The notes beneath the pieces are model-generated. The model saw nothing but the letters and a program-made list of their open reading frames with translations. It was not told the DNA's origin and ran no database searches. A stretch of 64,000 nt of DNA from NCBI GenBank assembly GCA_030583805.1, contig CP129476.1, positions 53,453 to 117,452 of the forward strand, written 5' to 3'. Below, piece after piece: positions 3,537 to 37,276 of this stretch; position 1 is the stretch's first letter; the number at the start of each line of letters is the position of its first letter. Origin of the DNA: Patescibacteria group bacterium. GTDB lineage: Bacteria; Patescibacteriota; Patescibacteriia; SG8-24; DYFX01. The position numbers and the translations under genes were made by a program.

Positions 3537-3548
3537 TCGGAAGAATCC

Positions 3549-4627: not shown

Positions 4628-4633
4628 CGCACA

Positions 4634-4669
4634 AGGCATCCCGCCTCATGGGGATGCCTCTTTTATTTG
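4634..4669 (+). terminator. intrinsic terminator after GGDEF gene
   Basis: Hairpin AGGCATCCC / GGGATGCCT (9-bp stem) followed by CTTTTATTTG. The T-tract overlaps the folD stop. Confidence 0.6.
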
Positions 4670-10785: not shown

Positions 10786-10886
10786 TCGGGACGCTTTCAC
10801 GGTCACGACTTCGAGAGACCTTCTGAGGGGAAGGTCTCGTTTTTTATCTTGAAAAATATGGAGCGAACGGGTAGGCTGGGCGTGAC

Positions 10887-14473: not shown

Positions 14474-15617
14474 GCACCGAACGGTACAGCGCGAGCACGG
14501 CTTCCACCATGGCCGAACCTGAGCGGCGTTCCGCAATGCGCGGGGCGCCGCTTTTGAGTTCATGATACAGCGTGCGGTCCGTCAGGACGTCGTGAAGCGC
14601 GCGCCGCAAAGCCTCAAGGTTCCCCGGTTCCACCAGCAAACCGCTGCGTCGGTCTTCGATCAGTTCCGGCAGGGCGCCGACGCGCGTGGCGACGATCGGA
14701 ATCTCGGCGAGCGACGCTTCAAGAATCGTCCACGGCAAACCTTCTTTTGTGGAAGGGAGGACAAAAACATCGAAGCCCTTCATGAGCGTGGCCGCGTCTT
14801 TCACGGCGCCCGGGAGGCAGACGCGGTCCTTGTGCGGGAGGGCGGCGTGCAACGCGCGCAGGCGCGGCATGTCCGGCCCGTCGCCAAGCACGACGAGATC
14901 GAGTTCCGGGAAGTCCGGCGCGAGGCGCTCGAACGTTTCAAACAGCATCGGCAAATTTTTCGCGGGGTAGGCGTTGGCGATCGTGCCGAGAACCAGACGG
15001 TCGAGTCGCGTGCCACAGCGCTCTGCCAGGCGTTCACGGGCGTCGTCGTGGTCCAGGAAAGCGATCTCCTCGCGATCGATGCCGAGCGGAATGATCGCGA
15101 GCGTCTGCGCGGTTGCCAAGCGTCGGCGCAAAGCGACGTCGCGCTCCGCTTCGGACAAGGTGATCGTGGCGCTCCGCCAGCGTGCGGCAAGTTTCTCGCT
15201 CAGCAAAAGCGTCAGTCGGAACAGCAAGCTGCGGCGTTCGAGAAAGCCCCAGCCGTGCGCGGTGTAGATCACGGACGGCCGGTACGCGGACATCCGCGCC
15301 GCGAGCGCGCCGATCAATCCCGCCTTGCTGCTGTTCGTGTGGATCAGGTCGAAGCGCTCGCGGTCGATCAGGCGGCGCAGCGCGCGCACGGCGAGCACGT
15401 CGCTGATGGGGGAGATGGGTTGTCGAAGTTCCGGAATTTCAAGCGCGCGCACCTCGGCAGGCAGCGCGGAAAACAGCTCGTGTTTCGGCGAACGGCCGGC
15501 GGCCACCGTTACGTCGAACGTTTTTGCGGCCTGCGCGGCCAGGCGCGCGACATAGCGTTCGGCGCCGCCCCAAGAGGACGACGTCACGAGCAGCAGGATT
15601 TTCGGTTTCGATTCCAT
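14451..15617 (-). CDS. glycosyltransferase family 4
   Basis: GT4 motif (STKEGLPWTILEASLAEIPIVATRVGALPELI). The ATG giving MESKPKILLLV is preferred. The track's upstream M is a TTG with no SD. Confidence 0.8.
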   Translation of the reverse strand: MESKPKILLLVTSSSWGGAERYVARLAAQAAKTFDVTVAAGRSPKHELFSALPAEVRALEIPELRQPISPISDVLAVRALRRLIDRERFDLIHTNSSKAGLIGALAARMSAYRPSVIYTAHGWGFLERRSLLFRLTLLLSEKLAARWRSATITLSEAERDVALRRRLATAQTLAIIPLGIDREEIAFLDHDDARERLAERCGTRLDRLVLGTIANAYPAKNLPMLFETFERLAPDFPELDLVVLGDGPDMPRLRALHAALPHKDRVCLPGAVKDAATLMKGFDVFVLPSTKEGLPWTILEASLAEIPIVATRVGALPELIEDRRSGLLVEPGNLEALRRALHDVLTDRTLYHELKSGAPRIAERRSGSAMVEAVLALYRSVLNRRSRR

Positions 15618-15672
15618 GATGCGGACTTTAAACTTCTTGCTTTTCGCTTTACCCAAGGTACACTATACACGC

Positions 15673-17892
15673 ATGAAAGTCGTCTTCGCCACCGGCATTT
15701 TTCCTCCCGATATCGGCGGTCCCGCCACCTCGGTTTCGGCGTTGGCTGAAGCGTGGAGCGCGCGCGGGCATCGCGTTACGGTCGTGACGTATGCCGATTC
15801 CGTGGAGGACGGCGCGCGTTCCGCGTACGGGGTCGTTCGCGTTCCGCGCGCGTTGCCCGCATGGAAGCGCTACGCGGCTTTTTTTCGCGCGCTTTGGCGC
15901 GCGTCCGACGAACCCGGGCCGATCTTCGCGCAGGACGCGATCGCTTCAGGCGTGCCCGCGCTCCTGGTCGCCTGGCTCCGCCGCCGGAGGTTCATCGTCC
16001 GGATCGCGGGCGATTTCGCCTGGGAGCAAGCGCACGTGAAGTACGGGTACGGCGAATCGCTCGAAACCTTTCAAAAAGACGCACGCGTTCCGCTCGTACC
16101 GATGGTTTTGCGCGCGGTGCAGCGCTTCGTGTATCGCCGCGCTGATCTCGCGCTCGCGCCCAGCCGCTACCTGGCCGCGGTGCTCCGCGACTGGGGCGTC
16201 CCCGAACGCCGCATTCGCATGGTGTACAACGGCGTCCATCTCCCAGAGGTTGCCGGCGAGCGCGGGAAGCATCCGCGCCGCATCGTCGCGGCCGGACGTC
16301 TCGTGCCTTGGAAAAATTTCGACGTCTTGATCAAGGCGATGCCGCGCGTCGTCGAGCGCTTTCCCGATGCGGAGCTGCTGATTGCCGGCGACGGACCTGA
16401 ACTCACGCGCCTGCGCGCGCTGGCGAGCGCGCCGATGCTCGCGGAACGCGTGACGTTCGCGGGCAAAATGGAACGCGAGGCGCTTTGGAAAACCATTGCC
16501 GAGAGCGGCGTTTTTGCGCTCGTGAGTTCTTACGAAGGCTTCTCGCACCAGCTGGTCGAAGCCTCGGCGTGCGGCACGGCGATTGTCGCGAGCCGCGCCG
16601 GAGGCAACACGGAACTTATCGAGAACGGGCGAAACGGCCTGCTGGTCGAACCGGGCGATGCCGCGTCGCTGGCGCAGGCGCTGATTCGGTTTCTGGAGGA
16701 TCCGGCATTCGCGCGCGCGTGCGCTGAAGAAGCGGCAAAAGATGCGCGGACGTTTTCGATCGAGCGGCAAATTGCGGAAACGTCCGAGATCGTACTCGGC
16801 GCGCCCGGACTCCGCGTCGTTCTCGTCAGCCGCGACGGCACGGTTGCCGATGCCGCTTCGCGGACGGCCGCGCGCATGCGGTCCTACGGCGAACGCGTCG
16901 ATCATCTTCGTGTCGTGAGCCTCGCGAAACAGGACGCGGCTTCGGTCGAGCTCTCGCCGCGGGTTCATGCGGATGTCGTTGACGTTCGCGGGTATCCTTT
17001 GCCGTGGCGGCTCGTGCGGCAGGTGCGCGAGGCGATCGCGGCGGAGCAGGCGACGCTCGTGGTCGCGCAAGATCCGTTCGAAGCGGGATTGGTTGGCGCG
17101 GCTGCGGCCTCGGCCGAGCAGGTTCCGTTCGTTGTCGAAGAACACGGCGGCGTCTATCTTTCCGAACATTGGCGGCAGGAGACGCTGAAACACAAGGTGT
17201 TGTATCCGCTCGGGCTCCGCGTCCTGAAACGCGCCGCCGGTATCCGGGCGGTCAGCGTGAAAATCGAAGAAGACCTGCGTCGGCGTTTTCCGACGGCGGA
17301 GATCGTCAAGATTCCCGTCTACACGGAACCGCGCACGTGCCGTTCGAGCGCGCCGCCGCACGTGTTCGGATACGTCGGCCGCTTCGTGCCGCAAAAGAAT
17401 CTCTTCGGCATGCTTGAAGCGTTTGCCGTGGTCGCCAGAGCGCTTCCGCAAGCGAAGCTGCTGCTTGTCGGCGCCGGACCGCTTGAAAACACGCTCAAGG
17501 CGCGCGCCTTCGTTCTCGGTATTTCAGAACGCGTGGAATGGATCGCGCACACGGAAAGCGTCGACAGCGTCTATGAACGCATCGGTACGCTCGTGCTTTC
17601 TTCGTGGTACGAGGGCTGGGCGCGCGTGGTGCCGGAAGCGATGTCCTGCGGTATTCCCGTCGTCATGACGGACGTGGGCTGCGCCAACGAATTGTTGCGC
17701 AACGGCATGGAAGGGTACGTCGTTCCGATCGGGGACGATGCCGTACTGGCCAAGGCGATGATCGATATCGTGCAGTCTGGAAAGCACGGGCTTTTGGCCG
17801 CCGCGGCGAAGCGCCGCGTCGAAACGTCGCCGACGCCGCAAGAGCTCGGCGATCGGCTGGTCGATTTTTGGAAGCGCTTCGGAGCGGCCTAG
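15673..17892 (+). CDS. tandem GT4-GT4 fusion glycosyltransferase
   Basis: 739 aa from ATG 15673 (MKVVFATGIFPP). Two complete GT4 units, each with its own E-x7-E-type motif (SSYEGFSHQLVEASACGTAIV...; SSWYEGWARVVPEAMSCGIPVV...). Confidence 0.8.
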   Translation: MKVVFATGIFPPDIGGPATSVSALAEAWSARGHRVTVVTYADSVEDGARSAYGVVRVPRALPAWKRYAAFFRALWRASDEPGPIFAQDAIASGVPALLVAWLRRRRFIVRIAGDFAWEQAHVKYGYGESLETFQKDARVPLVPMVLRAVQRFVYRRADLALAPSRYLAAVLRDWGVPERRIRMVYNGVHLPEVAGERGKHPRRIVAAGRLVPWKNFDVLIKAMPRVVERFPDAELLIAGDGPELTRLRALASAPMLAERVTFAGKMEREALWKTIAESGVFALVSSYEGFSHQLVEASACGTAIVASRAGGNTELIENGRNGLLVEPGDAASLAQALIRFLEDPAFARACAEEAAKDARTFSIERQIAETSEIVLGAPGLRVVLVSRDGTVADAASRTAARMRSYGERVDHLRVVSLAKQDAASVELSPRVHADVVDVRGYPLPWRLVRQVREAIAAEQATLVVAQDPFEAGLVGAAAASAEQVPFVVEEHGGVYLSEHWRQETLKHKVLYPLGLRVLKRAAGIRAVSVKIEEDLRRRFPTAEIVKIPVYTEPRTCRSSAPPHVFGYVGRFVPQKNLFGMLEAFAVVARALPQAKLLLVGAGPLENTLKARAFVLGISERVEWIAHTESVDSVYERIGTLVLSSWYEGWARVVPEAMSCGIPVVMTDVGCANELLRNGMEGYVVPIGDDAVLAKAMIDIVQSGKHGLLAAAAKRRVETSPTPQELGDRLVDFWKRFGAA

Positions 17893-18881
17893 GCTTCGAC
17901 GTCGTAAAAACCTTTCGCGTTGCGCGGGAAAGCGCGGATCTGTTCCGGCGGGCTGACGCAAAGATCGCCCGGTTTCAACGGGAACGGGGCTTCGTGCGCG
18001 TGAACGAGCAGAATGCCTCCGCGGCAGCAGACAAGCCATTTGCCGTTCGGGAACGTTTCAAGGACGGTTCCCGGAGCGCGTCCGGACTGTCCGTAGGCGA
18101 TCGCGTCCGTTTCGAATATCGAGGCGCGATGGATCGTGATCTTCTCGCCGCGCACGTACGTGAAGGCGCCGTTGAACGGCGGCGCGACCGCTCGAATGAA
18201 CCGCTCGATGTCCTCGAGATCCGCGCGCCAATCGATCAGGCTGTCTTCAGGATTCCGTTTCGGATAGAACGTCGGCGTCTCGTCGCTTTGCGGCGCCAGG
18301 CGAAACTGGCGCTCGAGAAGCGCCGGCAAATTTTTGATGATGAGGCGTTTCATCGCCAAGGCGTTTTTAAAATGCATCGTCTCGGCCGTGTCCTCCGGAC
18401 GGATCGTGAACCTGAACGTGTCCAGAACAGCGCCGGAATCGACGCCGGGATCGTACCGAAAGAGGTTCGTATAAAACTCCGTCCGCCCTTCCAAAATCGA
18501 CCAATTCATCGGCGAGCGCCCGCGGCCCTTGGGCAGGTTTTCGGCGCTGCCGTGCATGCCGAACGCGCCGATGCGGATGAGATCAAGAACGTTTGCGGGA
18601 ATCAGCCGCTGCCAGCCGATCACGAAGGCGAGATCGAGCTGCATGGAACGGATCGCCTCGACGTCCTCCGGCTCTTTCAGGGCATAGCTTCGCGCGACGT
18701 AGCAGGGAATGCCGTGCGCTTCGGCGAACGCGCGCAAGTCTTCGTAGTCGGCGACGTCGTTTTTCGCGGCAAGTTCCGGCGAGATCGTAATGAGCTGCTG
18801 CACGCCGCGCTGCGCCAAAAGCGCCTCAAGCATGAAGCGCGTCGTTTGCTTGCAGCCGAAGATGGCGATCTTCGCGTTCAT
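17889..18881 (-). CDS. formyltransferase family protein (sugar N-formyltransferase / Fmt-like)
   Basis: Start MNAKIAIFG. Formyl_trans_N region (HGSAENLPKGRGRSPMNWSILEG) and C-terminal Fmt-like domain. Stop overlaps the next gene start. Confidence 0.8.
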   Translation of the reverse strand: MNAKIAIFGCKQTTRFMLEALLAQRGVQQLITISPELAAKNDVADYEDLRAFAEAHGIPCYVARSYALKEPEDVEAIRSMQLDLAFVIGWQRLIPANVLDLIRIGAFGMHGSAENLPKGRGRSPMNWSILEGRTEFYTNLFRYDPGVDSGAVLDTFRFTIRPEDTAETMHFKNALAMKRLIIKNLPALLERQFRLAPQSDETPTFYPKRNPEDSLIDWRADLEDIERFIRAVAPPFNGAFTYVRGEKITIHRASIFETDAIAYGQSGRAPGTVLETFPNGKWLVCCRGGILLVHAHEAPFPLKPGDLCVSPPEQIRAFPRNAKGFYDVEA

Positions 18882-19585
18882 GAAGGGATACGCGTTCGGT
18901 AGGGAATGCAATTCTCCGCGACGTGCGCCTGAAAGCGATTGGCGCGCTCCGTTACGAAGCGGTCAAGAAGATCCACGTTATCCTTCGTGTTCGGATACAT
19001 CCACCAGAGCGGATGGATGAGGAGGTGCATCGCTTTGGTCTGCTTCCATTCCTCCGTTTCGAACGGGTGTCCGAAACGGAACAGGCCTTGGGAATCGGAA
19101 ACGTACTTGATGTCCTTGAAGTACTTGTTCTGGTAGGTGTGTTCGACGCCACAGAGCGGAGCGTCGCAGTTCTTGAGAAAATCGTTGGGGCGGTGCACGC
19201 TCATGACCGTGACCGGCACGCCGAAATACGATTCAAAAAGCGCTTTTTCCTCGAGAAAGCCTTGTTCGACGTTTTCATAATGCGTCGGATCGAAATGGAT
19301 GCTGACGCGGTGCCCGCGCGCATGGATCGAATGGATATATTCGGCGTTCGCGCGCGAAAAGGGGTTGTAGGAATCCGAACGCATCAGGAAAAAGTAGGTC
19401 GCTTTCACCCCGAGCGCGTCTTCCGCCAGCGACATGTCGTGCGCCAGCTTCACGTCAAAGTCGACGTCGTGGCGCACGATGAGTTCTCCCGTCGCGCCCG
19501 TCGCCTGATCAAAAAAAATCGGACGATAGCCGTTGAAGGCAAAGCCTTGAAGCAATGCGGCGTATTTTCCGAGATAGCTTTCCAT
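18878..19585 (-). CDS. hypothetical protein, possible polysaccharide deacetylase-like (NodB-fold) enzyme
   Basis: 235 aa. VRHDVDFD...GVKATYF resembles CE4 deacetylase motifs. Assignment is weak. Confidence 0.45.
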   Translation of the reverse strand: MESYLGKYAALLQGFAFNGYRPIFFDQATGATGELIVRHDVDFDVKLAHDMSLAEDALGVKATYFFLMRSDSYNPFSRANAEYIHSIHARGHRVSIHFDPTHYENVEQGFLEEKALFESYFGVPVTVMSVHRPNDFLKNCDAPLCGVEHTYQNKYFKDIKYVSDSQGLFRFGHPFETEEWKQTKAMHLLIHPLWWMYPNTKDNVDLLDRFVTERANRFQAHVAENCIPYRTRIPS

Positions 19586-19590
19586 GGGGT

Positions 19591-20616
19591 TCAGTGGATC
19601 GGCAGGCTGATGACGTGCTTGGCGGCGAATTCCGAATGGGGGAGGGGCGCGTGCTTGCCGAACAGGCCGACGTAGGCCGGCTGCTTGTAGACCGGAACGT
19701 CGTAATAGATTGCGGACGGAATGCCTTCGCGTTCAAGTTCTTTCACGAACGCCTTGCGGTCGTGTACGAGCAGCGTGAAGACGTTGTAGGTATGCCCCTC
19801 CTGTTCGGGCAGCGCCATGACGTTCGGGTGGTTCCGGTATTTTTTGAACCAGGATTGCGCTCGCGCGCGTCGCACGGCCAGATCTTCCTCCAGCCATGCT
19901 ATTTTTTCAAGCAGGACGGCGGCTTGGATCGTGTCGAGACGGCTGTTGCCGCCGATGATCTGGTGGACGTACTTTCTGGGTTGTCCGTGGTTTTTGAGCA
20001 GCTTGAAGCGCGCCAGGACGGCTTTCGAGCGGATCGTGACCGCGCCGCCGTCGCCGAAGGCGCCAAGATTCTTCGTCGGGAAGAAACTGAAGCAGCCGAC
20101 ATCACCGAACGTGCCGGTGAGCTTGCCGCCGCTTTTCGCGCCGTAGGACTGGGCGCAATCCTCGACGAGTTTCAGGTGATGCTTTTTGCAGATACGCGCG
20201 ACCTCCGCCACGTCGCAGGCAAGGCCGTAGAGATGTACGACGAGGACGGCGCGCGTTTTTTTCGTGATCTTTTTCTCGATCTGCGAAGCGTCGATGTTGA
20301 AGGTCTGCGGATCGATGTCGACCAGGACCGGTTTTGCGCCGACGGCCGCGATCGCTTCAATGGTCGCGAAATAGGTGAACGCCGTCGTGATGACTTCGTC
20401 GCCCGGACCGATACCGAGCGCTTTCAGGCCGATCATCAGAGCGTCCGTGCCCGAATTGCAGGTGACGGCTTCCACGCCGAAAAAGTCCGACAGCTTACGC
20501 TCGAGATCTCCGACTTCCGGACCGTTGATGAACTGTTCGGCGGCGACAACACGACCGATCCGCTTCAAGAGCAGGTCGGTTTTTTTCTTTGAGAGCTGTT
20601 GCGAAAAGAAGTTCAT
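19591..20616 (-). CDS. DegT/DnrJ/EryC1/StrS family PLP-dependent sugar aminotransferase
   Basis: 341 aa. TCNSGTDAL, HLYG, and an FFPTKNLGAFGDGGAV lysine region. Confidence 0.9.
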   Translation of the reverse strand: MNFFSQQLSKKKTDLLLKRIGRVVAAEQFINGPEVGDLERKLSDFFGVEAVTCNSGTDALMIGLKALGIGPGDEVITTAFTYFATIEAIAAVGAKPVLVDIDPQTFNIDASQIEKKITKKTRAVLVVHLYGLACDVAEVARICKKHHLKLVEDCAQSYGAKSGGKLTGTFGDVGCFSFFPTKNLGAFGDGGAVTIRSKAVLARFKLLKNHGQPRKYVHQIIGGNSRLDTIQAAVLLEKIAWLEEDLAVRRARAQSWFKKYRNHPNVMALPEQEGHTYNVFTLLVHDRKAFVKELEREGIPSAIYYDVPVYKQPAYVGLFGKHAPLPHSEFAAKHVISLPIH

Positions 20617-21344
20617 GCGGAAGCGGGTCCTTCGTAGGTGATCTCGTCGTCAGACAGGCGGCGCGGGCCGCGTACGGTTTCGCGTTCTTCGATGATCTGT
20701 GCGAGCAGTCCCGGCAAGCGAGCGAGCGCAAAGATGCCGCGCATCGGTTCAGGTCCGAAACCCATGTCGAGCAAGACGGCTGCCATCGCCCCGTCGACGT
20801 TAAGCGGCAGCGGTTTTTTCGCGTCGGTATTCAGCGCCGCTTCGACGCGTTCGGCGAACGCGGCATAGGCGCCGTAGACGCCGAGCGCTTTGGCGCGCGC
20901 GCATAAGGCTTCGCTGCGGCGGTCCTTGGCCAGAAGCTTGTGCCCGTATCCCGGCAAGCGGCGGTGTTCGGCGTGTGCGCGCGAGACGACGACTGCGGGG
21001 TCTTCCTGCGCCTGCGCGAGAAAGAATCTGGCCGCGTTCTCGATCGCGCCGCCGTGCAGCGTACCTTGGGCTAGGATGCCGGCGGCCAAAGCGACGTGCG
21101 GATCGTTTCCGGAAGAGGCGACGGCGCGCGCCGTGATCGACGAAACGGGCGCCGCGCCGTGATCGATGGCGGCGACCAGCACGGATTCCAGCATGGCGGC
21201 CTGTTCTTTCGTCGGCCAGCTCTCGCGCAGCAAAAGCCACGTCACTTCCGTAAACGACCGCGTACCGATCAAGGAGATCAGGTCGTGGCCGCGAAGAAGT
21301 TCGTGTTCCTTCGTGACATGGGAGATGCGCGTTTTGATGTTCAT
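20613..21344 (-). CDS. citrate synthase-like catalytic domain protein (citryl-CoA lyase / ATP-citrate lyase C-terminal-like)
   Basis: 243 aa. GYGHKLLAKDRRSE resembles the citrate-synthase HxxY...D-R catalytic loop. Size matches CCL / ACL C-terminal domain. Start overlaps the upstream gene stop by 4 bp. Confidence 0.6.
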   Translation of the reverse strand: MNIKTRISHVTKEHELLRGHDLISLIGTRSFTEVTWLLLRESWPTKEQAAMLESVLVAAIDHGAAPVSSITARAVASSGNDPHVALAAGILAQGTLHGGAIENAARFFLAQAQEDPAVVVSRAHAEHRRLPGYGHKLLAKDRRSEALCARAKALGVYGAYAAFAERVEAALNTDAKKPLPLNVDGAMAAVLLDMGFGPEPMRGIFALARLPGLLAQIIEERETVRGPRRLSDDEITYEGPASA

Positions 21345-22237
21345 GCGTGGGTCGTCGAATGGATCAATTCTACGAGGTTTTCGAAGCGTTCGGCAACCAA
21401 GGCGCCGGCGTCTTGGAGCGCCGCCATTTTTTCCCGGGCCGACCGGCCCTTGCCGACGATCGCGCCGGCGTGTCCCACAACAGTACCCGACGGCAGCGTT
21501 TCGGCGAAGGCGCCGCCGATATGCACCGCGAGCGGCTTCGTAAAGCCGCCGTCATGCAGCAAAGAAACGATTTCCGTTTCGTAGTTCACGCCCTGTTCGG
21601 CGTAGAGCACGACGGCTTTCGTGGCCGGGTCGTTTTCCATTTCCTTCAGGACGTCGGCGTACGTCGTGCCGATCAAGAGTTCGCCGCCGACGTGGACGGC
21701 GGCGCTCTGTCCGAGGCCGGCCTGGCGCACGAGCCAGGAGAGCTCGTTGGTCATGCCGCCGGAGCGCGAGATGACGCCGATCGGTCCTGGCGCGTAGATG
21801 TCGTCGACCAAAGGGCCGCCGACGACGCCGAGGCGTCCGATGCCGGGAACGATGCAGCCGAGCGAGCCAGGGCCGATGATCCGTGCGCCGCGTTCGCGCG
21901 CCGCCGCGAGGCAGTAGGCCGCGTCCTTGAGCGGCATCTTTTCCGTCATGACGTTCACGAGCGGTACGCCCGCCTCAAGCGCTTCGAGCACGGCGGATTT
22001 TGCGGCGGACGGAGGCACATAGACCGCCGAGACGTTGATTTCCGGGAAGGACGACAGGGCGTCTCGCACGGTCCCGAAGACCGGCGCGCCGTCGGCGACG
22101 TGCCCGCCTTTGCCCGGCGTGACGCCGCACGGCACGCGCGTGCGGTACGCCCGCATGGCCGTGAGCGCGCGCAATCCCTCCTTGCCGGTGATGCCCTGGA
22201 TCAAGACCGATGTTTTTTCCGTCAGCAGGATACTCAT
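21341..22237 (-). CDS. succinyl-CoA synthetase alpha-subunit (SucD)-like CoA-binding protein
   Basis: 298 aa. MSILLTEKTSVLIQGITGKEG, GVTPGKGG, phosphohistidine loop GHAGAIV. Colinear with SucD/CcsB. Confidence 0.85.
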   Translation of the reverse strand: MSILLTEKTSVLIQGITGKEGLRALTAMRAYRTRVPCGVTPGKGGHVADGAPVFGTVRDALSSFPEINVSAVYVPPSAAKSAVLEALEAGVPLVNVMTEKMPLKDAAYCLAAARERGARIIGPGSLGCIVPGIGRLGVVGGPLVDDIYAPGPIGVISRSGGMTNELSWLVRQAGLGQSAAVHVGGELLIGTTYADVLKEMENDPATKAVVLYAEQGVNYETEIVSLLHDGGFTKPLAVHIGGAFAETLPSGTVVGHAGAIVGKGRSAREKMAALQDAGALVAERFENLVELIHSTTHA

Positions 22238-23304
22238 AGCGCCAGCGTTTTCATGCGTGTCACGGCATCATCCATCGACGTTTCCTTGCCGAAAAGTTCG
22301 ATGCGCAGGCCGTTCCGTTCCGCGCAGGCGCGCAAGAGCGCGAGGCCTTCGCGTTCGCGCGGGCCGGCACGGCGGACGACGATCGGGTAGGAAGGCTTGA
22401 GCGCGTCGAGCGCCTCGGCAATGCCTTCGAACGTTTCTTTGACGTCGGTAAAATTGGCGATGCCGCCGACGATCAGCGCGCCGCGGAGGCCCGGCTTCGA
22501 CAAGACGAGCGTCGCGAGCTCGCGGACTTTTTCTTTCGGCGGGTTTCCGGAGTACTCGGCGTAATTGGCAGCGCGGAGTCCGGCGCGTTGCATGGCGTCC
22601 ATGTTCACGAGACTCGCGCCGCCGCCCGAAAAAAGCGTGGCGATGTCGCCGGAGAGCGCGCGATACGACGCGCCGAAGGCCGAACGGTCATGCACTGCGT
22701 CGTCGAGCGCGACCTTTGCGTCGAGCGCCACGAGTGATCCGTCTGCGCGCTCGGCGACGGGATTGATTTCGATTTGCCGCGCGTCTTCTTCAAAAAATGC
22801 TTTGACAAGCTTTTCGCAAAGCTCCGGCAACGCTTTGGCGATCAGGCCCAGCTCGCCGAAAATTCCTTCGAGCGAGCGCGCCGGATCGCGCGAATCGATC
22901 GGAAAGGATCGGATATCCTCGCGCGTCTCGACGCCGGAGCCTCCGTGTCGGCCGACGAGCAGGAGCGGTCCGCGAGAAGCGGCGTCGTAGAGGCAGGAAA
23001 CGTACAGTTCGCGCGCCGCAACGATGTGCTCTTCGAGCAGCATGCGCTCTACGGGCTGGCCGTTCACGCCGCGCGCCAGCCATGCGGACACAGTCTTCTC
23101 GACGTCGGACACGGATTCGCAAAAAACCACGCCGCCGTGCGCGGCGCGGTTTCCCTCAAGGATTTGCGCTTTGACCACCCAGCAGCCGCCCAGACTCTTC
23201 GTGGCCGCTTCGATCTCCTCGATGCCTGAAATAAGGATTCCGGCAGGAATCGCGATGCCGTGTTTTGCGAGGAGCGTCTTACCTTCGTGCTCGCAGACGT
23301 TCAT
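22234..23304 (-). CDS. succinyl-CoA synthetase beta-subunit (SucC)-like ATP-grasp protein
   Basis: 356 aa. MNVCEHEGKTLLAKHGIAIP resembles the SucC N-terminus. ATP-grasp plus CoA-ligase domains. Start overlaps the SucD-like stop (4 bp). Confidence 0.85.
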   Translation of the reverse strand: MNVCEHEGKTLLAKHGIAIPAGILISGIEEIEAATKSLGGCWVVKAQILEGNRAAHGGVVFCESVSDVEKTVSAWLARGVNGQPVERMLLEEHIVAARELYVSCLYDAASRGPLLLVGRHGGSGVETREDIRSFPIDSRDPARSLEGIFGELGLIAKALPELCEKLVKAFFEEDARQIEINPVAERADGSLVALDAKVALDDAVHDRSAFGASYRALSGDIATLFSGGGASLVNMDAMQRAGLRAANYAEYSGNPPKEKVRELATLVLSKPGLRGALIVGGIANFTDVKETFEGIAEALDALKPSYPIVVRRAGPREREGLALLRACAERNGLRIELFGKETSMDDAVTRMKTLAL

Positions 23305-24352
23305 ATTCTTCCTTCACGCGCCGTACGAGCTTTTTGAGATTGTGGTGCTCGACGACGATCGAGCGGAGCGTTTCGCCCATGCGGGCGCGTTCGTCGGGCG
23401 CGAGCGACAGGCACTTGTCGAGCTTGGCGGCAAAATCCTCAGCACCCCATTCGTAAAAGAGGTAGGGCAGCCACTCGCCGAAGTATTGGTTGAAGACCGG
23501 TGTGCAGACGAGCGTCGGAACGCCGCAGGACATCGACTCGAGAAAATTCTTTCCGGCGCCGCCGCCGCGCTGCATGGCGATGGAGACCGACGCGCCGCAC
23601 AAGTAGGGGAGAATGTCCTTGTTCGGCACCGGCCCCACGAAGTCGAAAGCGTCCTCCAGGCCGGCCGCCTTGATGCGTTCCTTGATGCCGGCGACGTAGG
23701 CTACGTCGGACGCGGTCAGCGGTCCGCCGATGATGCGTGCCACGAAATCGCGGCGACCGTACTTGTCGCGGAGAAGCTTGCAAGCATCGATCAGCAAATC
23801 ATACTCCTTAATAGGAGAAAGGCGTCCGACGCTTAAAATCACCTTGCGTTCCGAGGTGCGTTGCGGCACGGGGCAGCTGAAGAGATCCGGGTCGACGCCG
23901 TGGCCGACCGCCATGAATTTCGGCGAATCGCTGCCGCGGAAGCTTTCCTTCGAAACCGAAACGACGCCGTCGCCGAGCCAAAGCGCCATGAGCCGCAGCC
24001 AGCTGCCGCCCTTATGCGCGAACCAAAGCAGCGTCGTCTTGCCCATGAGCCTCCAGAACGGGCCGCCGAGCGTGACGTACTCGGAGTTCATGTGCACGAA
24101 GACGCAGTCGTAGTCGTTGCGCAGGCCGAAAATGTATTTGTAGAAACGCCAAAGGTACTGCAGCCGCGAGCGCTTTTCCTCTTTGCCGAGCGAGTGCACG
24201 CGCACGTTGGACGGGAGATCGTACGCGCCTTTTTTCAAACAGATCACTTCGACGGACGCGAAGACTTCAGCGAACCTCTTGATCCACTGGTGAAACGCGC
24301 CGAGCACGTCGTCGTTCTTATCGACGATTTGCGTGATGATCAGGAGTTTCAT
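23279..24352 (-). CDS. glycosyltransferase family 4
   Basis: Start MKLLIITQ (ATGA overlap with the upstream stop). GT4-like C-terminal domain (VGRLSPIKEYDLLIDA...GGGAGKNFLESMSCGVPTLV). Confidence 0.75.
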   Translation of the reverse strand: MKLLIITQIVDKNDDVLGAFHQWIKRFAEVFASVEVICLKKGAYDLPSNVRVHSLGKEEKRSRLQYLWRFYKYIFGLRNDYDCVFVHMNSEYVTLGGPFWRLMGKTTLLWFAHKGGSWLRLMALWLGDGVVSVSKESFRGSDSPKFMAVGHGVDPDLFSCPVPQRTSERKVILSVGRLSPIKEYDLLIDACKLLRDKYGRRDFVARIIGGPLTASDVAYVAGIKERIKAAGLEDAFDFVGPVPNKDILPYLCGASVSIAMQRGGGAGKNFLESMSCGVPTLVCTPVFNQYFGEWLPYLFYEWGAEDFAAKLDKCLSLAPDERARMGETLRSIVVEHHNLKKLVRRVKEEYERLRARR

Positions 24353-24927
24353 GCGGGGCGCACAAGCCCGTCCTCCAGACGGTAGGTTTTTCCGCACGGC
24401 GCGCAGACGGCGCGTTCGTTTTCAAAAGACAGTCGCGCATCGCAGGCGCAAACCCAACCGATGGGCTTGGCCGGAACGCCGACGACGAGCGCGTAGTCCG
24501 GCACGTTCTTGGTGACGACGGCGCCCGCACCGACCATCGCCCAAGCGCCGATCGTCACGCCGCAGACGATGGTCGCATTCGCGCCGATTGCTGCGCCGGT
24601 TTTGACGAGCGTCGGCTGCCAAGCTTCGCGTTTGGAGGTCTCGCGCGAGCGCGGCATCGGGTCGTTCGTAAAAACGACCGACGGGCCGACGAACACGCGG
24701 TCTTCCAGCGTCACGAGATCCCAGACGTCGATATTCGCCTCGAGTTTCACGCGGTCGCCCAAAACGGCTTTTCCGAAAACGGTGCAGTTGTGGCCGATGA
24801 CGCAGGTTTCGCCGACCTTCGCGCCGCTCACGATCTGGCTGTGGCGCCAGATTTTCGTGCCTGAACCGATGGTCGCGTCGTCGGCGACTTCGGCGGTCGG
24901 ATGGATCGTGACGCCCTCATGCGCCAT
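24349..24927 (-). CDS. hexapeptide-repeat (LbH) sugar N-acetyltransferase, WbpD/PglD/QdtC-like, with C-terminal Cys4 ribbon
   Basis: 192 aa of left-handed beta-helix repeats. C-terminus CACDARLSFENERAVCAPCG (CxC...CxxC). Confidence 0.85.
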   Translation of the reverse strand: MAHEGVTIHPTAEVADDATIGSGTKIWRHSQIVSGAKVGETCVIGHNCTVFGKAVLGDRVKLEANIDVWDLVTLEDRVFVGPSVVFTNDPMPRSRETSKREAWQPTLVKTGAAIGANATIVCGVTIGAWAMVGAGAVVTKNVPDYALVVGVPAKPIGWVCACDARLSFENERAVCAPCGKTYRLEDGLVRPA

Positions 24928-25714
24928 ACGCGGCGTAGAGCGAATCGACGAGTTCGACGGACGGCAGCGTCTCGGCCGGGCGCACGCCCTTGCCCTCGAG
25001 CAGGTCGAGGTAGACGAGGCGGTGCAGATTCTCGTATGACAAGTTATCCTTCGACGAGAAGTTGTAATCCTTGCCGTTCACGACGAAGCGGCGTTGCTGA
25101 CCCGCGCGGTCGCGGTAGATGCCGACCGTCCAGGTGCAGCGATAACGGTCGCCTTCGATGACGCCTTTGCCGACGAGATCGTTCAATTCCGTCGTCGTGA
25201 CCTTCGTCGGCGCTCCGAAGATGTGCTGGAGCAGGTCGAAATAGTGGATGCCGATGTTGTAGAGCGGGCCGCCGGAGCGCTTGTTGTCGCCCTTCCACGT
25301 TTTGAAATACTTCTCGTCGCGGTAGACGGAAATATTCATGTCGATCTCGAACGTGCCGCCGGCGGCGACCTGCGCGCGCAAATCGTGCACCATCGGATGA
25401 TGGCGCAGCTGCATCACGGTGAAGATCTTGTCGAATCCGGCCAGCGATTTGACCGACTCCGCGGAGATGCCGAGCGGCTTTTCGCAAAGCACGAGCTTGC
25501 CGGCTTCGGCGGCCGCGCGTGCCATCGGGACGTGCAGGTCGTTCGGGCCGAGGATCACGATACAATCGGTTTTCGGGTTGTCCATCACTCCGGTTTTCCA
25601 GCGGTCTTCGCCGTACGCGGTATTCACCGCGTCGATCAATTTTCCGCCCAAAGCCTCGATGGCTTCGGCGTGCCGCGGCATGATGAATCCGGTTCCAATC
25701 AGGCTGAAGTTCAT
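24917..25714 (-). CDS. Gfo/Idh/MocA family sugar oxidoreductase (WbpB-like), short form
   Basis: 265 aa. N-terminal Rossmann MNFSLIGTGFIMPRHAEA, then EKP and a GGPLYNIGIHYFDLL C-terminal domain. Confidence 0.8.
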   Translation of the reverse strand: MNFSLIGTGFIMPRHAEAIEALGGKLIDAVNTAYGEDRWKTGVMDNPKTDCIVILGPNDLHVPMARAAAEAGKLVLCEKPLGISAESVKSLAGFDKIFTVMQLRHHPMVHDLRAQVAAGGTFEIDMNISVYRDEKYFKTWKGDNKRSGGPLYNIGIHYFDLLQHIFGAPTKVTTTELNDLVGKGVIEGDRYRCTWTVGIYRDRAGQQRRFVVNGKDYNFSSKDNLSYENLHRLVYLDLLEGKGVRPAETLPSVELVDSLYAAYGA

Positions 25715-25758
25715 ACTTCGGCATTATCGGCTTGAGAGGGCGATTCGTCAATGAACGC

Positions 25759-25787
25759 TTGACGTTTTGGTATTTTTGGGGAATACT
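25759..25787 (+). promoter_or_regulatory. sigma70-like promoter candidate (TTGACG-17-AATACT) with ~150-nt leader before 25936
   Basis: TTGACG 25759-25764, 17-nt spacer, AATACT 25782-25787. It lies in the 220-bp intergenic region that must also hold the leftward promoter of the 9-gene operon. Confidence 0.4.
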
Positions 25788-25935
25788 AGGTCGTTGCCTG
25801 GAAGTATCCTGTTTGAACTCAGCGTTTTGAGGCTGCATCTCGGCTCCAAACCGCCGCGTTCAAAAGGGAAGTTCCCGAGGCGAACGTTTCGTCTCAGAAC
25901 GTACCGACGGCATTCAAGAAAGGCAGGGTAGCCAT

Positions 25936-26745
25936 ATGGCCAACCTGTTCACTGTTCCCGCTGGAAAGCTCAATACGTTCACTGGCAAGCTGTCGCAAGA
26001 GGGCCTAACGGCCGAAATCGTCTTGGCGACTGACAAATATCCGGAGATCGTCCGGGTAATGGTCGAGGCGGGGCGCAAGGCGTTCGAAGCTCGTGATCAG
26101 AACCCCTTCGTCATGACGCTTGAGGAGCAGCTCGAGGCACTGCGTCTCGCCAACATGGAGGAGGGGTGGGGTATCGCTGACGAGATCATCGATCAGCTCG
26201 CCGCGACCGCACCCGCTTGGCCCAAGGGCCGTGACTCCTACCGTTCGTTTCGTATTCGCTTCGGTGAAGGTGGTGATGGTGTGGCACAGACCTTCGAGGC
26301 GCACATGACCCGCATTGAGCGCCTGTACGGAAAAGAGAAGTTTCAGCGACACACGTACTTGCGCTCGGGAAAAGAGTACTTGCGCCGACACGCACCGGAT
26401 CGTCCCCATACGCCCGTTGTCGAGTGGTGCATCACAAGTCTCGATGCCAACGAGAAAATGAAGAGCGTCAAAGCTCGTCGCGGTCCGAAGTCGCTCGCCG
26501 ACGAAGGTTTGGTTCTCGCCTGGCTCTTTCCCAAACGAGTTGAAGCGATCGACCGCAGCATGTGGCCGGCATGGTTCTGTGCAGGGTACGAGATCTGTGT
26601 TCCAGAGTTTTGCCCTCAAGGTTTCGTCCCTACTTGGAACAACCTGATCTGCGTCACCCGCATCCAGAATGGCGAGATACTTCTGAAAATCGACCAACAG
26701 GACTGCGCCTTAAAGGGCTATTCGGTGCCGGCTGTTGAGGGGTGA
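25936..26745 (+). CDS. hypothetical protein with Cys-rich C-terminus
   Basis: 269 aa, no recognisable domain. C-terminal cysteines (WFCAGYEICVPEFCPQGF...NLICV...QDCALKGY). Confidence 0.5.
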   Translation: MANLFTVPAGKLNTFTGKLSQEGLTAEIVLATDKYPEIVRVMVEAGRKAFEARDQNPFVMTLEEQLEALRLANMEEGWGIADEIIDQLAATAPAWPKGRDSYRSFRIRFGEGGDGVAQTFEAHMTRIERLYGKEKFQRHTYLRSGKEYLRRHAPDRPHTPVVEWCITSLDANEKMKSVKARRGPKSLADEGLVLAWLFPKRVEAIDRSMWPAWFCAGYEICVPEFCPQGFVPTWNNLICVTRIQNGEILLKIDQQDCALKGYSVPAVEG

Positions 26746-26870
26746 TCGTGTTAAGACGCTTGCACATTCCCTGACCAGCTCGAAACAAATTCTTCGCGCG
26801 ACAAACCGCATTTGGAAAACGCCCTCTCAGGGCGCGCTCCATGTGCGGTATTTTCTTTTGCGCAAACTGG

Positions 26871-26890
26871 CCAAAAACGCGTTTTTTTGG
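26871..26890. repeat. perfect 20-bp palindrome CCAAAAACGCGTTTTTTTGG (A/T-rich arms) 14-33 bp upstream of the GT4-GT-C gene start
   Basis: Seen directly in sequence. Could be an operator or a weak bidirectional hairpin. Confidence 0.5.
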
Positions 26891-26903
26891 CAGGATAGGG
26901 GAG

Positions 26904-29255
26904 ATGAACATCGCCTACGTCGCCAACGTCCGCCTGCCGACCGAGAAGGCGCACGGGCTCCAGATCATGTCCATGTGCCGCGCGTTCGCGAGGAACGGCC
27001 ACCGCGTGCGGCTGGTCGTCCCGAAGCGCAAGAACATCCACGCCGAATCGCCGTGGGCGTTTTACGGTTTCAAAGAGGAATTTGAAATCGTCGAGGTGCC
27101 GATCTACGACTTCATTTCGCACGATCGCATCCTCGGCCGCTTCGCGCTCTGGCTGAACACGCTGCAATTCTTGGTGACGGCGCGCCGCGCCGTGCACGGG
27201 TTCAATCCCGACGTCGTCTACGCGCGTGAGCCGTGGTACGGCAGTCTCGCGCCGGAAGTCCCGCACGTCTTCGAGGCGCACGACTTCACGAATCGCGTCA
27301 CGCCGTTGCACCGCCGCTGGTGGAAGCGCGCCGCGAGAATCGTCGCCGTTACGGCGGGGCTCAAAAACGTTTTTGTCGCGCACGGCGTGCCGGAAGAAAA
27401 AATCGTCGTCGCGCACGACGGCGTCGACGAAGCCACCTTCGCCGTGCGCGAGACCAAAGCGGAAGCCCGGGCGGAACTCGGCCTGCCATCCGACGCGGTT
27501 CTTGCCATCTACACCGGACATCTCTACGCCTATAAAGGAGCGGATGACGTGCTGGATGCCGCCGCTTCGGTGCCGCCGCACGTCCGAATTCTTTTCGTTG
27601 GCGGCCGCCCTGACGACCTCGCGCGGCTCAAGGCGCGTGCAGCCGCGCTCCATGCGTCAAATGTCATTTTCGCGGGACGCGTGCCGCACGCCATGATTCC
27701 GGTGTATCTCCGCGCGGCTGACATCGCCGTGCTGCCGACGCGCGGAACCGACCGGCATGCCGCGGAATTTTTGTCGCCGCTCAAGCTCTTCGAATACCTG
27801 GCTGCCGGCAAGGCGCTCGTCGCGACCGATCTGCCTTCGGCGCGCGAAGTGCTGACGGATGCAACAGCCGTCTTCGTCCCGCCGTCCGATCCGACGGCGC
27901 TGGCGAAAGCCCTGAGTGATCTTGCAGCTTCGCCGGAACGCGTCGCCTCGTTAGAGCGCGAGAGCTTGCGACTCGCGGCGAATCATACGTGGCTGCGCCG
28001 CGTGGAAACCGTGCTGGCAGATTTGAAGCCGTCCGATGCCGTGCAACCTTGGTACGTTCGTTATCGCGTCGAGATCCTCTGCGCCGTTCTCGCGCTGGCT
28101 ATCCGCACGCTGTACGTTTCCTTTTTCCCGCAGTTCAAGTTTGAAGGCGGCGACGGGCCGATTTACATCGGCTTATCCGACTACGTGCGCGGCCTTGTCG
28201 ACGAGGTGCCGAAGAAAGACCTGCGCTTCTTCCCGATTGTCTACCCGTACTTCTTGGCGATGATCAGAAGCGTCTTCGGCAACGATCTCTTGTGGGTGCG
28301 TCTTGCCCAGGCTGCGCTTTCAGCCGCGACCGTCTTCGTCGGCGCGCTCGCCGCGCGTCTCTGGCTCGGCCGCGCGACCGGACTGCTCGCGGGCGTCCTG
28401 CTCGCCGTGTACGCGCCGCTCGTGCTCGAGAGCGGCATTATCTACACCGAAACGACGTATACGTTCCTGCTGACTTCGGCCGTCGTGCTCGGGGTGTTCG
28501 CGGTGCAGCGCGCGCGGCTCGCGTACGCCTTCGCGGCCGGCATCGGTTTCATGTTCGCGGGCCTCACGCGCGAGCTCGGTTTCTACCAAGCGCTACTCTT
28601 CGGAATCTTCGCGCTCGCGTGGCGTCGTTCCTGGAAAATGGCGGCGCTGCTCATGATCCCGACCTTGCTCGCGCTCGGAGGATTGTCGATTCGGAACGCC
28701 GCGATCGCGGAAAAGCACGCGCTTACGTCCGCTCCGCTCGTCTCCAAAAATTATGAAAAGGATTTGTTCGAGCCGACCCTGGTTGAGTTCCTCTTTTCGC
28801 CGTCGCGCTGGCATCTGTACGTCGAGGGCTCGTATCTCTATTGGCGCTTCCCGTATCGCCTGAGCGATTTGGGAACGGGGGAGCCGGTCGATGGCAAGAC
28901 GAATCCGGACGGCGACGTGGTCTATCACTTGAGCACGAAGCCGGGTTCCTTCATGGCGATTCAGCCAGCGCATCAGATTGCCGGAAAATGGTTCCTGGTT
29001 TTGACGCATTGGTTCCTACTGGTTCTCGCGGCCTACGGCCTTTGGAGAGGCCGTCTTCCGAAAGAGGCGAAGATCGGTTTCCTGATCGCTATCCTGTTCG
29101 CGTGGGGCACGATCATGCTCGGCGGCTTGCACCGCGTGCAGGGATTCGAGGGTTTTGAACCGCTCGCGCGCTACCGGTTCCCGACGGAAGTGCTGATACT
29201 TCTCTTGGCCGTCTCCGGCGCGCAGGCGCTCGGCGTACGCAAGAAGAAAACGTGA
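26904..29255 (+). CDS. GT4 glycosyltransferase fused to a C-terminal polytopic GT-C-like (ArnT/PMT_2-like) membrane domain
   Basis: 784 aa from ATG 26904 (AGGGGAG RBS). N-terminal ~390 aa GT4 (TRGTDRHAAEFLSPLKLFEYLAAGKALVATD). C-terminal ~390 aa with about 10 TM segments and GT-C-like loops. Confidence 0.75.
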   Translation: MNIAYVANVRLPTEKAHGLQIMSMCRAFARNGHRVRLVVPKRKNIHAESPWAFYGFKEEFEIVEVPIYDFISHDRILGRFALWLNTLQFLVTARRAVHGFNPDVVYAREPWYGSLAPEVPHVFEAHDFTNRVTPLHRRWWKRAARIVAVTAGLKNVFVAHGVPEEKIVVAHDGVDEATFAVRETKAEARAELGLPSDAVLAIYTGHLYAYKGADDVLDAAASVPPHVRILFVGGRPDDLARLKARAAALHASNVIFAGRVPHAMIPVYLRAADIAVLPTRGTDRHAAEFLSPLKLFEYLAAGKALVATDLPSAREVLTDATAVFVPPSDPTALAKALSDLAASPERVASLERESLRLAANHTWLRRVETVLADLKPSDAVQPWYVRYRVEILCAVLALAIRTLYVSFFPQFKFEGGDGPIYIGLSDYVRGLVDEVPKKDLRFFPIVYPYFLAMIRSVFGNDLLWVRLAQAALSAATVFVGALAARLWLGRATGLLAGVLLAVYAPLVLESGIIYTETTYTFLLTSAVVLGVFAVQRARLAYAFAAGIGFMFAGLTRELGFYQALLFGIFALAWRRSWKMAALLMIPTLLALGGLSIRNAAIAEKHALTSAPLVSKNYEKDLFEPTLVEFLFSPSRWHLYVEGSYLYWRFPYRLSDLGTGEPVDGKTNPDGDVVYHLSTKPGSFMAIQPAHQIAGKWFLVLTHWFLLVLAAYGLWRGRLPKEAKIGFLIAILFAWGTIMLGGLHRVQGFEGFEPLARYRFPTEVLILLLAVSGAQALGVRKKKT

Positions 29256-32084: not shown

Positions 32085-32158
32085 AACGAGTCAAGAATAG
32101 CTTTTTCAGGCTTGAAAAGCAAGGGTGTTCAGGGTACGCTTGCCTGAGCATTCGCCGT

Positions 32159-35913: not shown

Positions 35914-35927
35914 GCTATTGAAAAATA

Positions 35928-35957
35928 CCGGAGCGGTGCAGACCGCCCCGGTTTTTT
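35928..35957 (+). terminator. intrinsic terminator after repeat-protein gene
   Basis: Hairpin CCGGAGCGGT-GCAG-ACCGCCCCGG followed by TTTTTT. Confidence 0.7.
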
Positions 35958-35973
35958 CATTGCCGAAGCGGAA

Positions 35974-37275: not shown

Positions 37276-37276
37276 T

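Follow-up and report, generated by a model that had tools for sequence, protein, structure and literature searches.

Why should genes that appear to encode citrate cleavage lie inside an operon for an amino sugar, and what would they do there? Patescibacteria, the bacteria of the candidate phyla radiation (CPR), have tiny genomes and almost no central metabolism, and it is poorly understood where they obtain the acetyl-CoA that their peptidoglycan and surface glycans require. Here we analyse a nine-gene operon of a Patescibacteria group bacterium, located in a 64,000-nucleotide stretch of GenBank assembly GCA_030583805.1 (contig CP129476.1, positions 53,453 to 117,452; GC content about 62%) that we refer to as the window. 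Its genes are numbered G1 to G9 in the order of transcription, G1 first and G9 last. Judging from the sequences, we consider it likely that the operon makes and transfers a 2,3-diamino-2,3-dideoxy-hexose derivative, and that it carries its own citrate-fed supply of the acetyl donor together with an acyl-remodelling pair of enzymes. The most economical reading of G4 to G6 is that they would form an acetyl-CoA supply module for sugar N-acetylation, a reading drawn from the protein families, from catalytic residues that are intact and from the genes around the trio.

A predicted citrate-cleavage trio among Wbp-type sugar genes

The nine co-directional open reading frames (ORFs) lie head to tail on the minus strand and fill positions 17889-25714, with transcription running from 25714 to 17889 (Table 1). 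An independent gene caller returned the same nine genes on an identical public 33-kb Logan contig, where G3 has 357 amino acids. The arrangement recurs in other metagenome-assembled genomes (MAGs) and is therefore not an accidental string of ORFs such as high GC content can produce. With starts taken from that caller, seven of the eight junctions overlap by 4 to 26 bp, five of them in the ATGA manner: from G1 to G9, overlaps of 11, 4, 26, 4, 4 and 4 bp are followed by a 5-bp gap between G7 and G8 and a last overlap of 4 bp. Among the operon genes only G4 has a Shine-Dalgarno-like GAAGGA upstream of its start, which fits coupling by termination-reinitiation. We infer that the locus is one polycistronic operon, largely translationally coupled. 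An earlier note on this DNA had given the nine minus-strand genes with the order and coordinates found here, and the six overlap positions it listed are all correct; the 26-bp overlap of G3 and G4 (23279-23304) was absent from its list. Pfam and NCBIfam reproduced eight of its family calls and returned no match for the gene it had called NodB-like, G8.

The most distinctive and most informative part of the operon is the trio G4 to G6, predicted to encode citryl-CoA synthetase and citryl-CoA lyase (CCS/CCL), the two-step form of ATP-citrate lyase (ACL). The earlier note had labelled these three genes SucC-like, SucD-like and citrate-synthase-like and assigned them no function. G4, a CcsA-like protein, combines a PF08442 ATP-grasp domain with the PF16114 ATP-citrate-lyase citrate-binding domain, conserves the ANYAEYSGNPP loop and finds its best PDB match in the large subunit of Hydrogenobacter CCS (6HXQ_B, 9e-42), ahead of ACL beta and succinyl-CoA synthetase (SCS) beta subunits. 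G5, which is CcsB/SucD-like, has CoA_binding and Ligase_CoA domains and the phosphohistidine loop GHAGA. G6 has a truncated citrate-synthase fold and scores 217.4 bits against NCBIfam NF004869 (citryl-CoA lyase), for which the cut-off is 212; its best PDB match is Hydrogenobacter CCL (6HXP, 8e-47), and H62, H135 and D184, the catalytic His/His/Asp of citrate synthase, are invariant in an alignment of 14 diverse homologues. On the strength of 6HXQ_B, 6HXP and NF004869, we rejected an ordinary SCS plus citrate synthase as the identity of the large subunit and the lyase. Genes of the tricarboxylic acid (TCA) cycle or of its reductive form (rTCA) were found neither in the 64-kb window nor in the flanks of related CPR loci, where the context consists of amino-sugar and glycan genes. 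A 30-residue linker deletion in G4 was considered as a sign of decay and discarded: the region is also missing in homologues from Saccharibacteria and Andersenbacteria, and its loss is therefore tolerated.

The closest characterised system is the CCS/CCL of Hydrogenobacter thermophilus (6HXP, 6HXQ), with which the trio shares the split into three proteins, the domains, the His/His/Asp of CCL and the GHAGA loop. The two differ in the length of the large subunit (429 amino acids there, 356 in G4) and in setting, the genes here lying within a glycan operon of a CPR genome of about 1.2 Mb. Whereas the Hydrogenobacter enzymes serve carbon fixation in the rTCA cycle, those of the operon are proposed to serve an anabolic supply of acetyl-CoA. 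CPR and DPANN sequences have previously been placed within CCS/CCL clades (bioRxiv 10.1101/2022.10.25.513756).

The trio is accompanied by enzymes that would make a diamino sugar. G1, with Pfam GFO_IDH_MocA and its C domain, resembles a compact WbpB-like sugar 3-dehydrogenase. Its best PDB matches are WbpB 3OA2 (1e-26) and WbpB 3O9Z (4e-24), the P. aeruginosa/Thermus WbpB pair, and it retains the EKP and NIGIHYFD motifs, the latter of the GxH(Y/F)xD type. G2 (Pfam Hexapep) is a WlbB/WbpD-like N-acetyltransferase of the left-handed beta-helix (LbH) type with a full-length match to WlbB 3MQG, a UDP-GlcNAc3NA N-acetyltransferase (2e-51), and is the predicted acetyl-CoA consumer of the operon. G3 (Pfam Glycos_transf_1) is a glycosyltransferase of family GT4. 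G7 matches DegT_DnrJ_EryC1 at 2e-101 in Pfam and has the FFPTKNLG motif with the lysine for pyridoxal phosphate; its nearest solved relatives are sugar aminotransferases (7B0D, 1e-82; 8E75, 5e-80; WbpE, 3e-77; QdtB, 3e-68), WbpE standing among the top three distinct PDB proteins. Looking up the literature on entries 7B0D and 8E75 gave nothing useful. We regard G7 as probably a WbpE-like sugar aminotransferase, with regiospecificity for position 3 as a prediction. A frameshift in G1 had been suspected from a Pfam match that starts at profile position 57 and from an overlapping 264-amino-acid ORF in another frame. It was ruled out: the N-terminus aligns with the Rossmann start of WbpB, and the shortening is an internal deletion, of about 40 residues relative to WbpB.

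Dehydrogenase, aminotransferase and acetyltransferase together form the logic of the Wbp/Wlb pathway (compare PMC7468200, PMC10622841). In P. aeruginosa (WbpA/B/E/D/I) and Bordetella (WlbA-D) this pathway leads to UDP-2,3-diacetamido-2,3-dideoxy-glucuronic or -mannuronic acid, and the likeness extends to the 3-dehydrogenase, the 3-aminotransferase and the LbH 3-N-acetyltransferase. The operon differs in having no WbpA-type 6-dehydrogenase or WbpI-type 2-epimerase, in a G1 that is about 50 residues shorter than WbpB and in the interleaving of the pathway genes with the GT4 gene and the CCS/CCL trio. Of the Wbp logic claimed in the earlier note, 3-amination and 3-N-acetylation hold (WbpB at 1e-26, WbpE at 3e-77, WlbB at 2e-51). 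With WbpA and WbpI absent from the operon, a uronic acid is not implied, the exact sugar cannot be named, and the substrate may be UDP-N-acetylglucosamine (UDP-GlcNAc) instead. The sole candidate sugar 6-dehydrogenase of the window is a UDP-glucose/GDP-mannose-dehydrogenase-like ORF at 61580-62620 (+), 36 kb from the operon, which has the N-terminal and central domains of that family and lacks the C-terminal UDP-binding domain.

We propose the following route. G1 would oxidise C3 of a UDP-GlcNAc-type sugar, the resulting 3-keto sugar would be transaminated by G7, and the new 3-amine would be N-acetylated from acetyl-CoA by G2. G3 would move the sugar into a glycan, with completion by neighbouring GT4 proteins, a GT4-PMT_2 fusion and a Wzy_C-like protein. 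G4 and G5 would turn citrate, ATP and CoA into citryl-CoA, which G6 would split into acetyl-CoA and oxaloacetate; the acetyl-CoA would feed G2, no TCA cycle being expected in this bacterium. G8 and G9 would remodel one N-acyl group, most likely by taking the 2-N-acetyl off and putting a formyl on; this is the weakest part of the proposal. A bolder extension, which we hold to be distinctly unlikely, would have both products of citrate cleavage put to use, acetyl-CoA by G2 and oxaloacetate in re-oxidising the NADH of the WbpB-type dehydrogenase, and would make CPR CCS/CCL, more generally, a dedicated 'envelope acetyl-CoA generator' running on host-derived citrate. On this extension, the ATP-citrate-lyase lineage would have had anabolic acetyl-CoA supply, and not carbon fixation, among its major and perhaps ancient functions. 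Known WbpB-type dehydrogenases hold a tightly bound NADH that is re-oxidised with 2-oxoglutarate.

The trio in related genomes

Related genomes, scanned one per species, yielded 80 loci; we compared these with the nine proteins by tblastn and clustered all flanking ORFs. CcsA, CcsB and CCL form a fixed co-directional unit almost everywhere (more than 60 loci). The full nine-gene operon is present in L002, L003 and L083, the last with 63% identity in CCL and an additional Hexapep gene upstream; five further loci (L004-L006, L085, L086) have G1 to G7 without G8 and G9. This seven-gene core, in which the trio sits between the GT4 and DegT genes, is kept down to 58% CCL identity, and its neighbours are constant: the GT4-PMT_2 fusion, a double GT4 gene, Wzy_C and a MurC-like gene.

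CPR loci further removed from the window (Uhrbacteria, Magasanikbacteria, Paceibacter, Parcubacteria, Andersenbacteria, Saccharibacteria) have the trio behind or right next to UDP-GlcNAc-type genes. These encode GlmS (794 bits), a YvcK/GlmR-type UDP-GlcNAc-binding protein (195.6 bits), a 111-amino-acid GNAT protein and a GlmU-like uridylyltransferase, with HAD/beta-PGM-like proteins and a TrmB-type regulator also present. We counted same-strand genes in the 49 loci that lie outside the window's clade and have at least 4 kb of upstream sequence. GlmS is on the strand of the trio in 31/49, YvcK in 30/49, the small GNAT in 24/49 and a GlmU reduced to its N-terminal domain in 17/49; the loci without any of these four (14/49) are mostly non-CPR. 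GlmS directly abuts the trio in the Andersenbacteria and Saccharibacteria loci.

Other genes of acetyl-CoA metabolism occur in these clusters. Kbl (glycine C-acetyltransferase, 591 bits) and a Tdh-like dehydrogenase are found together in seven loci, and the alpha, beta and gamma subunits of pyruvate:ferredoxin oxidoreductase (PFOR) lie between the GlmU N-domain gene and GlmS in five to six (L017, at 2431-4641; L025, L026, L046, L050, L059). Counting CCS/CCL, three predicted acetyl-CoA-forming systems would thus meet at one amino-sugar locus. A third kind of setting is seen in L011, L013 and L018, where an epimerase/dehydratase gene and two genes of UDP-glucose-dehydrogenase type precede the trio; in L011 a DegT gene is found downstream as well. 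From their gene content, the shared denominator of the trio's contexts appears to be amino-sugar synthesis that consumes acetyl-CoA, and the operon of the window one instance of a widespread CPR association of CCS/CCL with UDP-GlcNAc or glycan genes. In the window's lineage the trio would have left a UDP-GlcNAc cluster for a Wbp-type operon, settling between the genes for the GT4 and the aminotransferase, where its translation would be coupled to that of G2, the predicted user of acetyl-CoA.

The GlmU-like proteins of the CPR loci (cluster 9; L017, 1671-2441) consist of the uridylyltransferase domain alone, about 250 amino acids, without an acetyltransferase domain. The 111-amino-acid GNAT (cluster 6; L017, 7568-7903), half the usual size, stands directly before the CCS/CCL trio and may be the missing GlcN-phosphate N-acetyltransferase. 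Many related loci (L003-L055, third-party co-assemblies) are labelled 'uncultured Gammaproteobacteria bacterium' and one 'Candidatus Udaeobacter', with a gene order of CPR type; the taxonomic labels of these co-assembly records look unreliable, and we did not rely on them.

An external source of citrate has been considered for another CPR bacterium: for a Gracilibacterium, an ACL 'rarely detected in CPR' was predicted to turn citrate from outside the cell into acetyl-CoA and oxaloacetate (PMC6851277). That enzyme is a two-subunit ACL placed in central carbon metabolism, whereas the system described here is a three-gene CCS/CCL linked to amino-sugar genes and, unlike the rarely detected ACL, occurs in many Parcubacteria-type, Saccharibacteria and related MAGs. 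Published work is consistent with a role in acetyl-CoA supply but does not describe it, and in the library that could be searched no literature was found on a link of CCS/CCL to GlmS or glycan genes. New here would be the combination of a Wbp-type pathway with CCS/CCL and an uncharacterised acyl-remodelling pair, the kinds of component being known.

CCS/CCL inside amino-sugar operons, whether beside GlmS, YvcK and GNAT or in the Wbp-type setting of the window, would offer a testable answer to the question of where acetyl-CoA for the envelope comes from. 'TCA-like' genes, usually taken for rTCA markers or else mislabelled succinyl-CoA synthetase or citrate synthase, would thereby gain a physiological role, and the arrangement points to citrate as a host-derived metabolite.

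The accessory pair and competing explanations

G8 has no sequence match in Pfam (Polysacc_deac_1 included), NCBIfam (E <= 0.01) or PDB, and its family consists of 'hypothetical proteins' with 114 database relatives, chiefly from CPR and Bacteroidota. An AlphaFold (AF2) model built from 25 homologues reached a mean confidence (pLDDT) of 94.7, and of the top 30 or so Foldseek matches in PDB almost all were NodB-type deacetylases of carbohydrate esterase family 4 (CE4), with E values down to 2e-5 and probability 1.0. A profile-to-PDB search gave weak CE4 matches (E 0.006-0.76) over the 'ATYFF...GHxxxxH' region. The call of a NodB-like protein in the earlier note is supported at the level of the predicted fold. 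Eleven residues are invariant (R38, H39, D40, D42, H92, H97, D99, H131, H191, W194, W195); D40, D42, H92, H97 and H191 are candidate metal ligands or catalytic residues, and the set is compatible with a metal-dependent amidohydrolase. On the basis of the model, we describe G8 as a putative de-N-acylase with a CE4/NodB-like fold.

G9 has the Pfam domains Formyl_trans_N and Formyl_trans_C, and the ArnA formyltransferase domain is its best PDB match (2e-35). With sugar N-formyltransferases of the ArnA-FT, WlaRD, VioF and FdtF type it shares the fold, the His and the Asp but not the Asn-x-His; its motif is GMHGSxx(N/D)LPxGRGRSP, with two residues inserted after HGS. It scores well under every NCBIfam equivalog cut-off (157.6 against a formyltransferase cut-off of 316). 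G8 and G9 overlap and form a conserved pair: at least 24 contigs are common to both homologue lists, and the genes are adjacent in a Lewinellaceae/Saprospiraceae (Bacteroidota) glycan locus (L082), which also carries AsnB-like, Polysacc_deac_1 and Acetyltransf_6 genes, and in a CPR-type locus (L084). No DegT gene adjoins the pair in Bacteroidota. Several otherwise identical operons lack it, which marks it as an accessory, mobile module. Two uncharacterised families, one with a CE4-like fold and no Pfam entry and the other a formyltransferase-like clade lacking the Asn, thus appear to travel as a pair through glycan loci of CPR and Bacteroidota.

What would such a pair do? One precedent is an exchange of acyl groups in which VimE, a CE4 deacetylase, and VimA, an acyltransferase, act on the product of a Wbp pathway (PMC7468200); the AsnB-like, Polysacc_deac_1 and Acetyltransf_6 genes of L082 are of this kind. 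The Wbp/Vim system of Porphyromonas gingivalis and Tannerella forsythia described there resembles the operon in joining a Wbp core to a CE4-type de-N-acetylase and a re-acylating enzyme. It differs from the operon in three ways. VimE is a canonical CE4 protein (CDD, E 1e-83) and G8 has no Pfam match; VimA is FemAB-like and G9 formyltransferase-like, the operon having no Acetyltransf_6/FemAB-like gene; and there is no WbpS-type amidotransferase here. The other parallel is the ArnA/ArnD system for the 4-amino-arabinose of lipid A. By analogy with it, G9 would N-formylate the amine transiently, pulling an unfavourable transamination, and G8 would deformylate the sugar after its transfer to a lipid carrier, leaving a free cationic amine in the glycan. 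Several features favour this: the ArnA formyltransferase domain is both the closest solved relative of G9, its C-terminal subdomain included, and the source of its best NCBIfam matches; ArnD is a deformylase of the CE4 family and the fold of G8 is CE4-like; and G7, G8 and G9 are adjacent, as are ArnB, ArnD and ArnA, so that a CE4-fold enzyme and an aminotransferase stand together in both systems. A PMT_2/ArnT-like GT-C domain lies in the conserved neighbour, to which relatives add a GT2 and PMT_2 pair. The two systems differ in that the equivalent of ArnA Asn102 is Gly in G9, two residues are inserted after HGS, the ArnA decarboxylase domain is missing and the sugar of the operon is of hexosamine type. 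We think an Arn-like route unlikely: the operon has a dedicated 3-N-acetyltransferase, operons lacking G8 and G9 are otherwise complete, and the Bacteroidota pair stands without an adjacent DegT. We slightly prefer an acyl swap to the Arn-like route because G2 already provides a 3-N-acetyltransferase and because the pair is also found in loci without an adjacent aminotransferase.

The trio itself admits other functions. It might serve general central metabolism, forming oxaloacetate or pyruvate or running in reverse to yield ATP, with its place in a sugar operon incidental. The ACL of Desulfobacter postgatei does run in reverse, making citrate and ATP from acetyl-CoA and oxaloacetate by substrate-level phosphorylation; the ACL reaction is near equilibrium, PFOR and Kbl beside the trio in other CPR loci could feed it with acetyl-CoA, and in Anaerolineae the trio lacks a sugar context. 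Set against this, overlapping reading frames fix the trio in its place, after the GT4 gene and before the DegT gene, throughout a clade that reaches down to 58% identity, the trio is tied to three different kinds of amino-sugar context, and the reverse reaction needs stoichiometric oxaloacetate, for which no source was seen; a role in central metabolism is, in our judgement, quite unlikely. Still less probable is a substrate other than citrate for the trio, with an unusual acyl-CoA as the product from which G2, or a different transferase, would add a non-acetyl N-acyl group to the amino sugar. The acids used by SCS/ACL-family ligases do vary (malate, succinate, citrate and 3-hydroxypropionate in the NCBIfam list), G4 scores below all equivalog cut-offs of that database, and some relatives (L083) have an extra Hexapep transferase. 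However, G4 has the ACL citrate-binding domain and CCS as its closest solved relative, an obligatory lyase partner with an intact citrate-synthase triad points to cleavage of a citryl-type thioester to acetyl-CoA, and G2 matches the acetyl-specific WlbB at 2e-51.

Several observations weigh against the supply of acetyl-CoA to a Wbp-type pathway, or against its individual parts. G5 scores equally with the SCS alpha subunit (2YV2, 1e-62) and the small subunit of CCS (6HXQ_A, 4e-61) and, taken alone, is ambiguous between the two. Neither a citrate transporter nor another source of citrate was identified, and WbpA-type 6-dehydrogenase and WbpI-type 2-epimerase genes are missing from the flanks of the operon as well as from the operon itself. 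Related MAGs owe their synteny with GlmS in part to common descent, so that the 31 of 49 loci are not independent events; the Anaerolineae, non-CPR relatives, have the trio in unrelated contexts; and the 111-amino-acid GNAT, as a GNA1-type GlcN-6-P acetyltransferase, found generic GNAT matches only. In the pair, the fold matches of G8 are moderate (TM 0.4-0.5), and in G9 a Gly stands where N-x-H has its catalytic Asn; its closest homologues (120/120) all share this Gly and the two-residue insertion after HGS, with His and Asp kept. The N-formyl product predicted in the earlier note is therefore plausible from the formyltransferase domains and the match to ArnA, but not secure given this substitution and scores below the NCBIfam cut-offs.

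Operon ends and the surrounding glycan locus

The strongest sigma-70-like match in 17000-26600 is the site at 25751-25723, inside the upstream gap 25715-25935 in which the earlier note had placed the single promoter; the location agrees, as a consensus match only. Four sigma-70-like sites were found in all, compared with 1.7 +/- 1.6 expected in shuffles, and the two 9/12 matches within genes fall within chance expectation. The -10 element of the best site ends 8 nt before the ATG of G1, which suggests a leaderless or near-leaderless mRNA. Candidate internal terminators were dismissed, being just weak consensus matches, intragenic and in many cases on the antisense strand. An RNA element, such as a riboswitch, within the leader gap of 221 bp was likewise discarded: neither Rfam families nor tRNAs turned up anywhere in the window. 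At the distal end, G9 and the convergent double GT4 gene share 4 bp at their stop codons, and there is no space between them for a terminator. The divergent gene across the upstream gap (25936-26745, +; 269 amino acids) has no Pfam match and was seen on the window's own contig (L001) only; its promoter-like site (25759-25787, +) overlaps the -35 region of the operon in a back-to-back arrangement.

Table 1. Positions of the operon genes and of neighbouring features in the window; functions are predicted from sequence or, for G8, from a structural model.
Feature	Coordinates	Strand	Length and remarks
G1, WbpB-like 3-dehydrogenase	24917-25714	-	265 aa
G2, WlbB/WbpD-like N-acetyltransferase	24349-24927	-	192 aa
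G3, GT4 glycosyltransferase	23279-24352	-	357 aa; alternative GTG start 24397 gives 372 aa
G4, CcsA-like	22234-23304	-	356 aa
G5, CcsB/SucD-like	21341-22237	-	298 aa
G6, CCL-like	20613-21344	-	243 aa
G7, WbpE-like aminotransferase	19591-20616	-	341 aa
G8, putative CE4/NodB-like de-N-acylase	18878-19585	-	235 aa
G9, formyltransferase-like	17889-18881	-	330 aa; alternative TTG start 18911 gives 340 aa
Promoter-like site	25723..25751	-	TTGACG-17 nt-GATAAT, 10/12 consensus matches
Double GT4 protein, convergent neighbour	15616..17892	+	758 aa; cluster 26, found in related loci
GT4-PMT_2 (GT-C, ArnT/PMT-like) fusion, divergent neighbour	26841..29255	+	
MurC-like ligase	10875-12281		
Wzy_C-type protein	12263-14473		
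Bac_transf initiating transferase	30768-32090		
Flippase-like protein	35914-37275		
MurB	37250-38251		

By its gene content, the operon appears to lie inside a large envelope-glycan locus, which beyond the features of Table 1 has several GT4 genes, a GDP-mannose-dehydratase-like gene and a cytidylyltransferase. The GT4-PMT_2 fusion adjoins the operon in L002, L004-L006, L083, L085 (888-3007) and L086 (141-2260) as well, and probably acts as the extracytoplasmic transferase for this glycan. Relatives carry an additional, separate PMT_2 protein and a GT2, and these together with the fusion suggest a polyprenyl-phosphate-linked, extracytoplasmic glycosylation step.

Further features of the window stand apart from the operon. 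An 862-amino-acid ORF at 33325-35913 (+), with no solid Pfam match, contains four 100%-identical tandem units of 621 bp (207-amino-acid repeats; 33436-35919) that coincide with a strong GC/AT-skew anomaly; a surface protein that has expanded recently is one possible explanation, an artefact of assembly another. SecD (47843-49933, +) has a PPIC-type peptidyl-prolyl isomerase (Rotamase) domain inserted between its P1 subdomains, and SecF (49872-50846) is next to it. The gene at 52253-54100 (+), within a lower-GC stretch at about 50-53 kb, encodes a type IV coupling ATPase that is TraG/VirD4-like and carries a zinc-finger domain; it is accompanied by two ORFs without Pfam matches (43930-45378 and 50831-52252), and these genes may belong to a mobile region or to one for CPR pili and DNA uptake.

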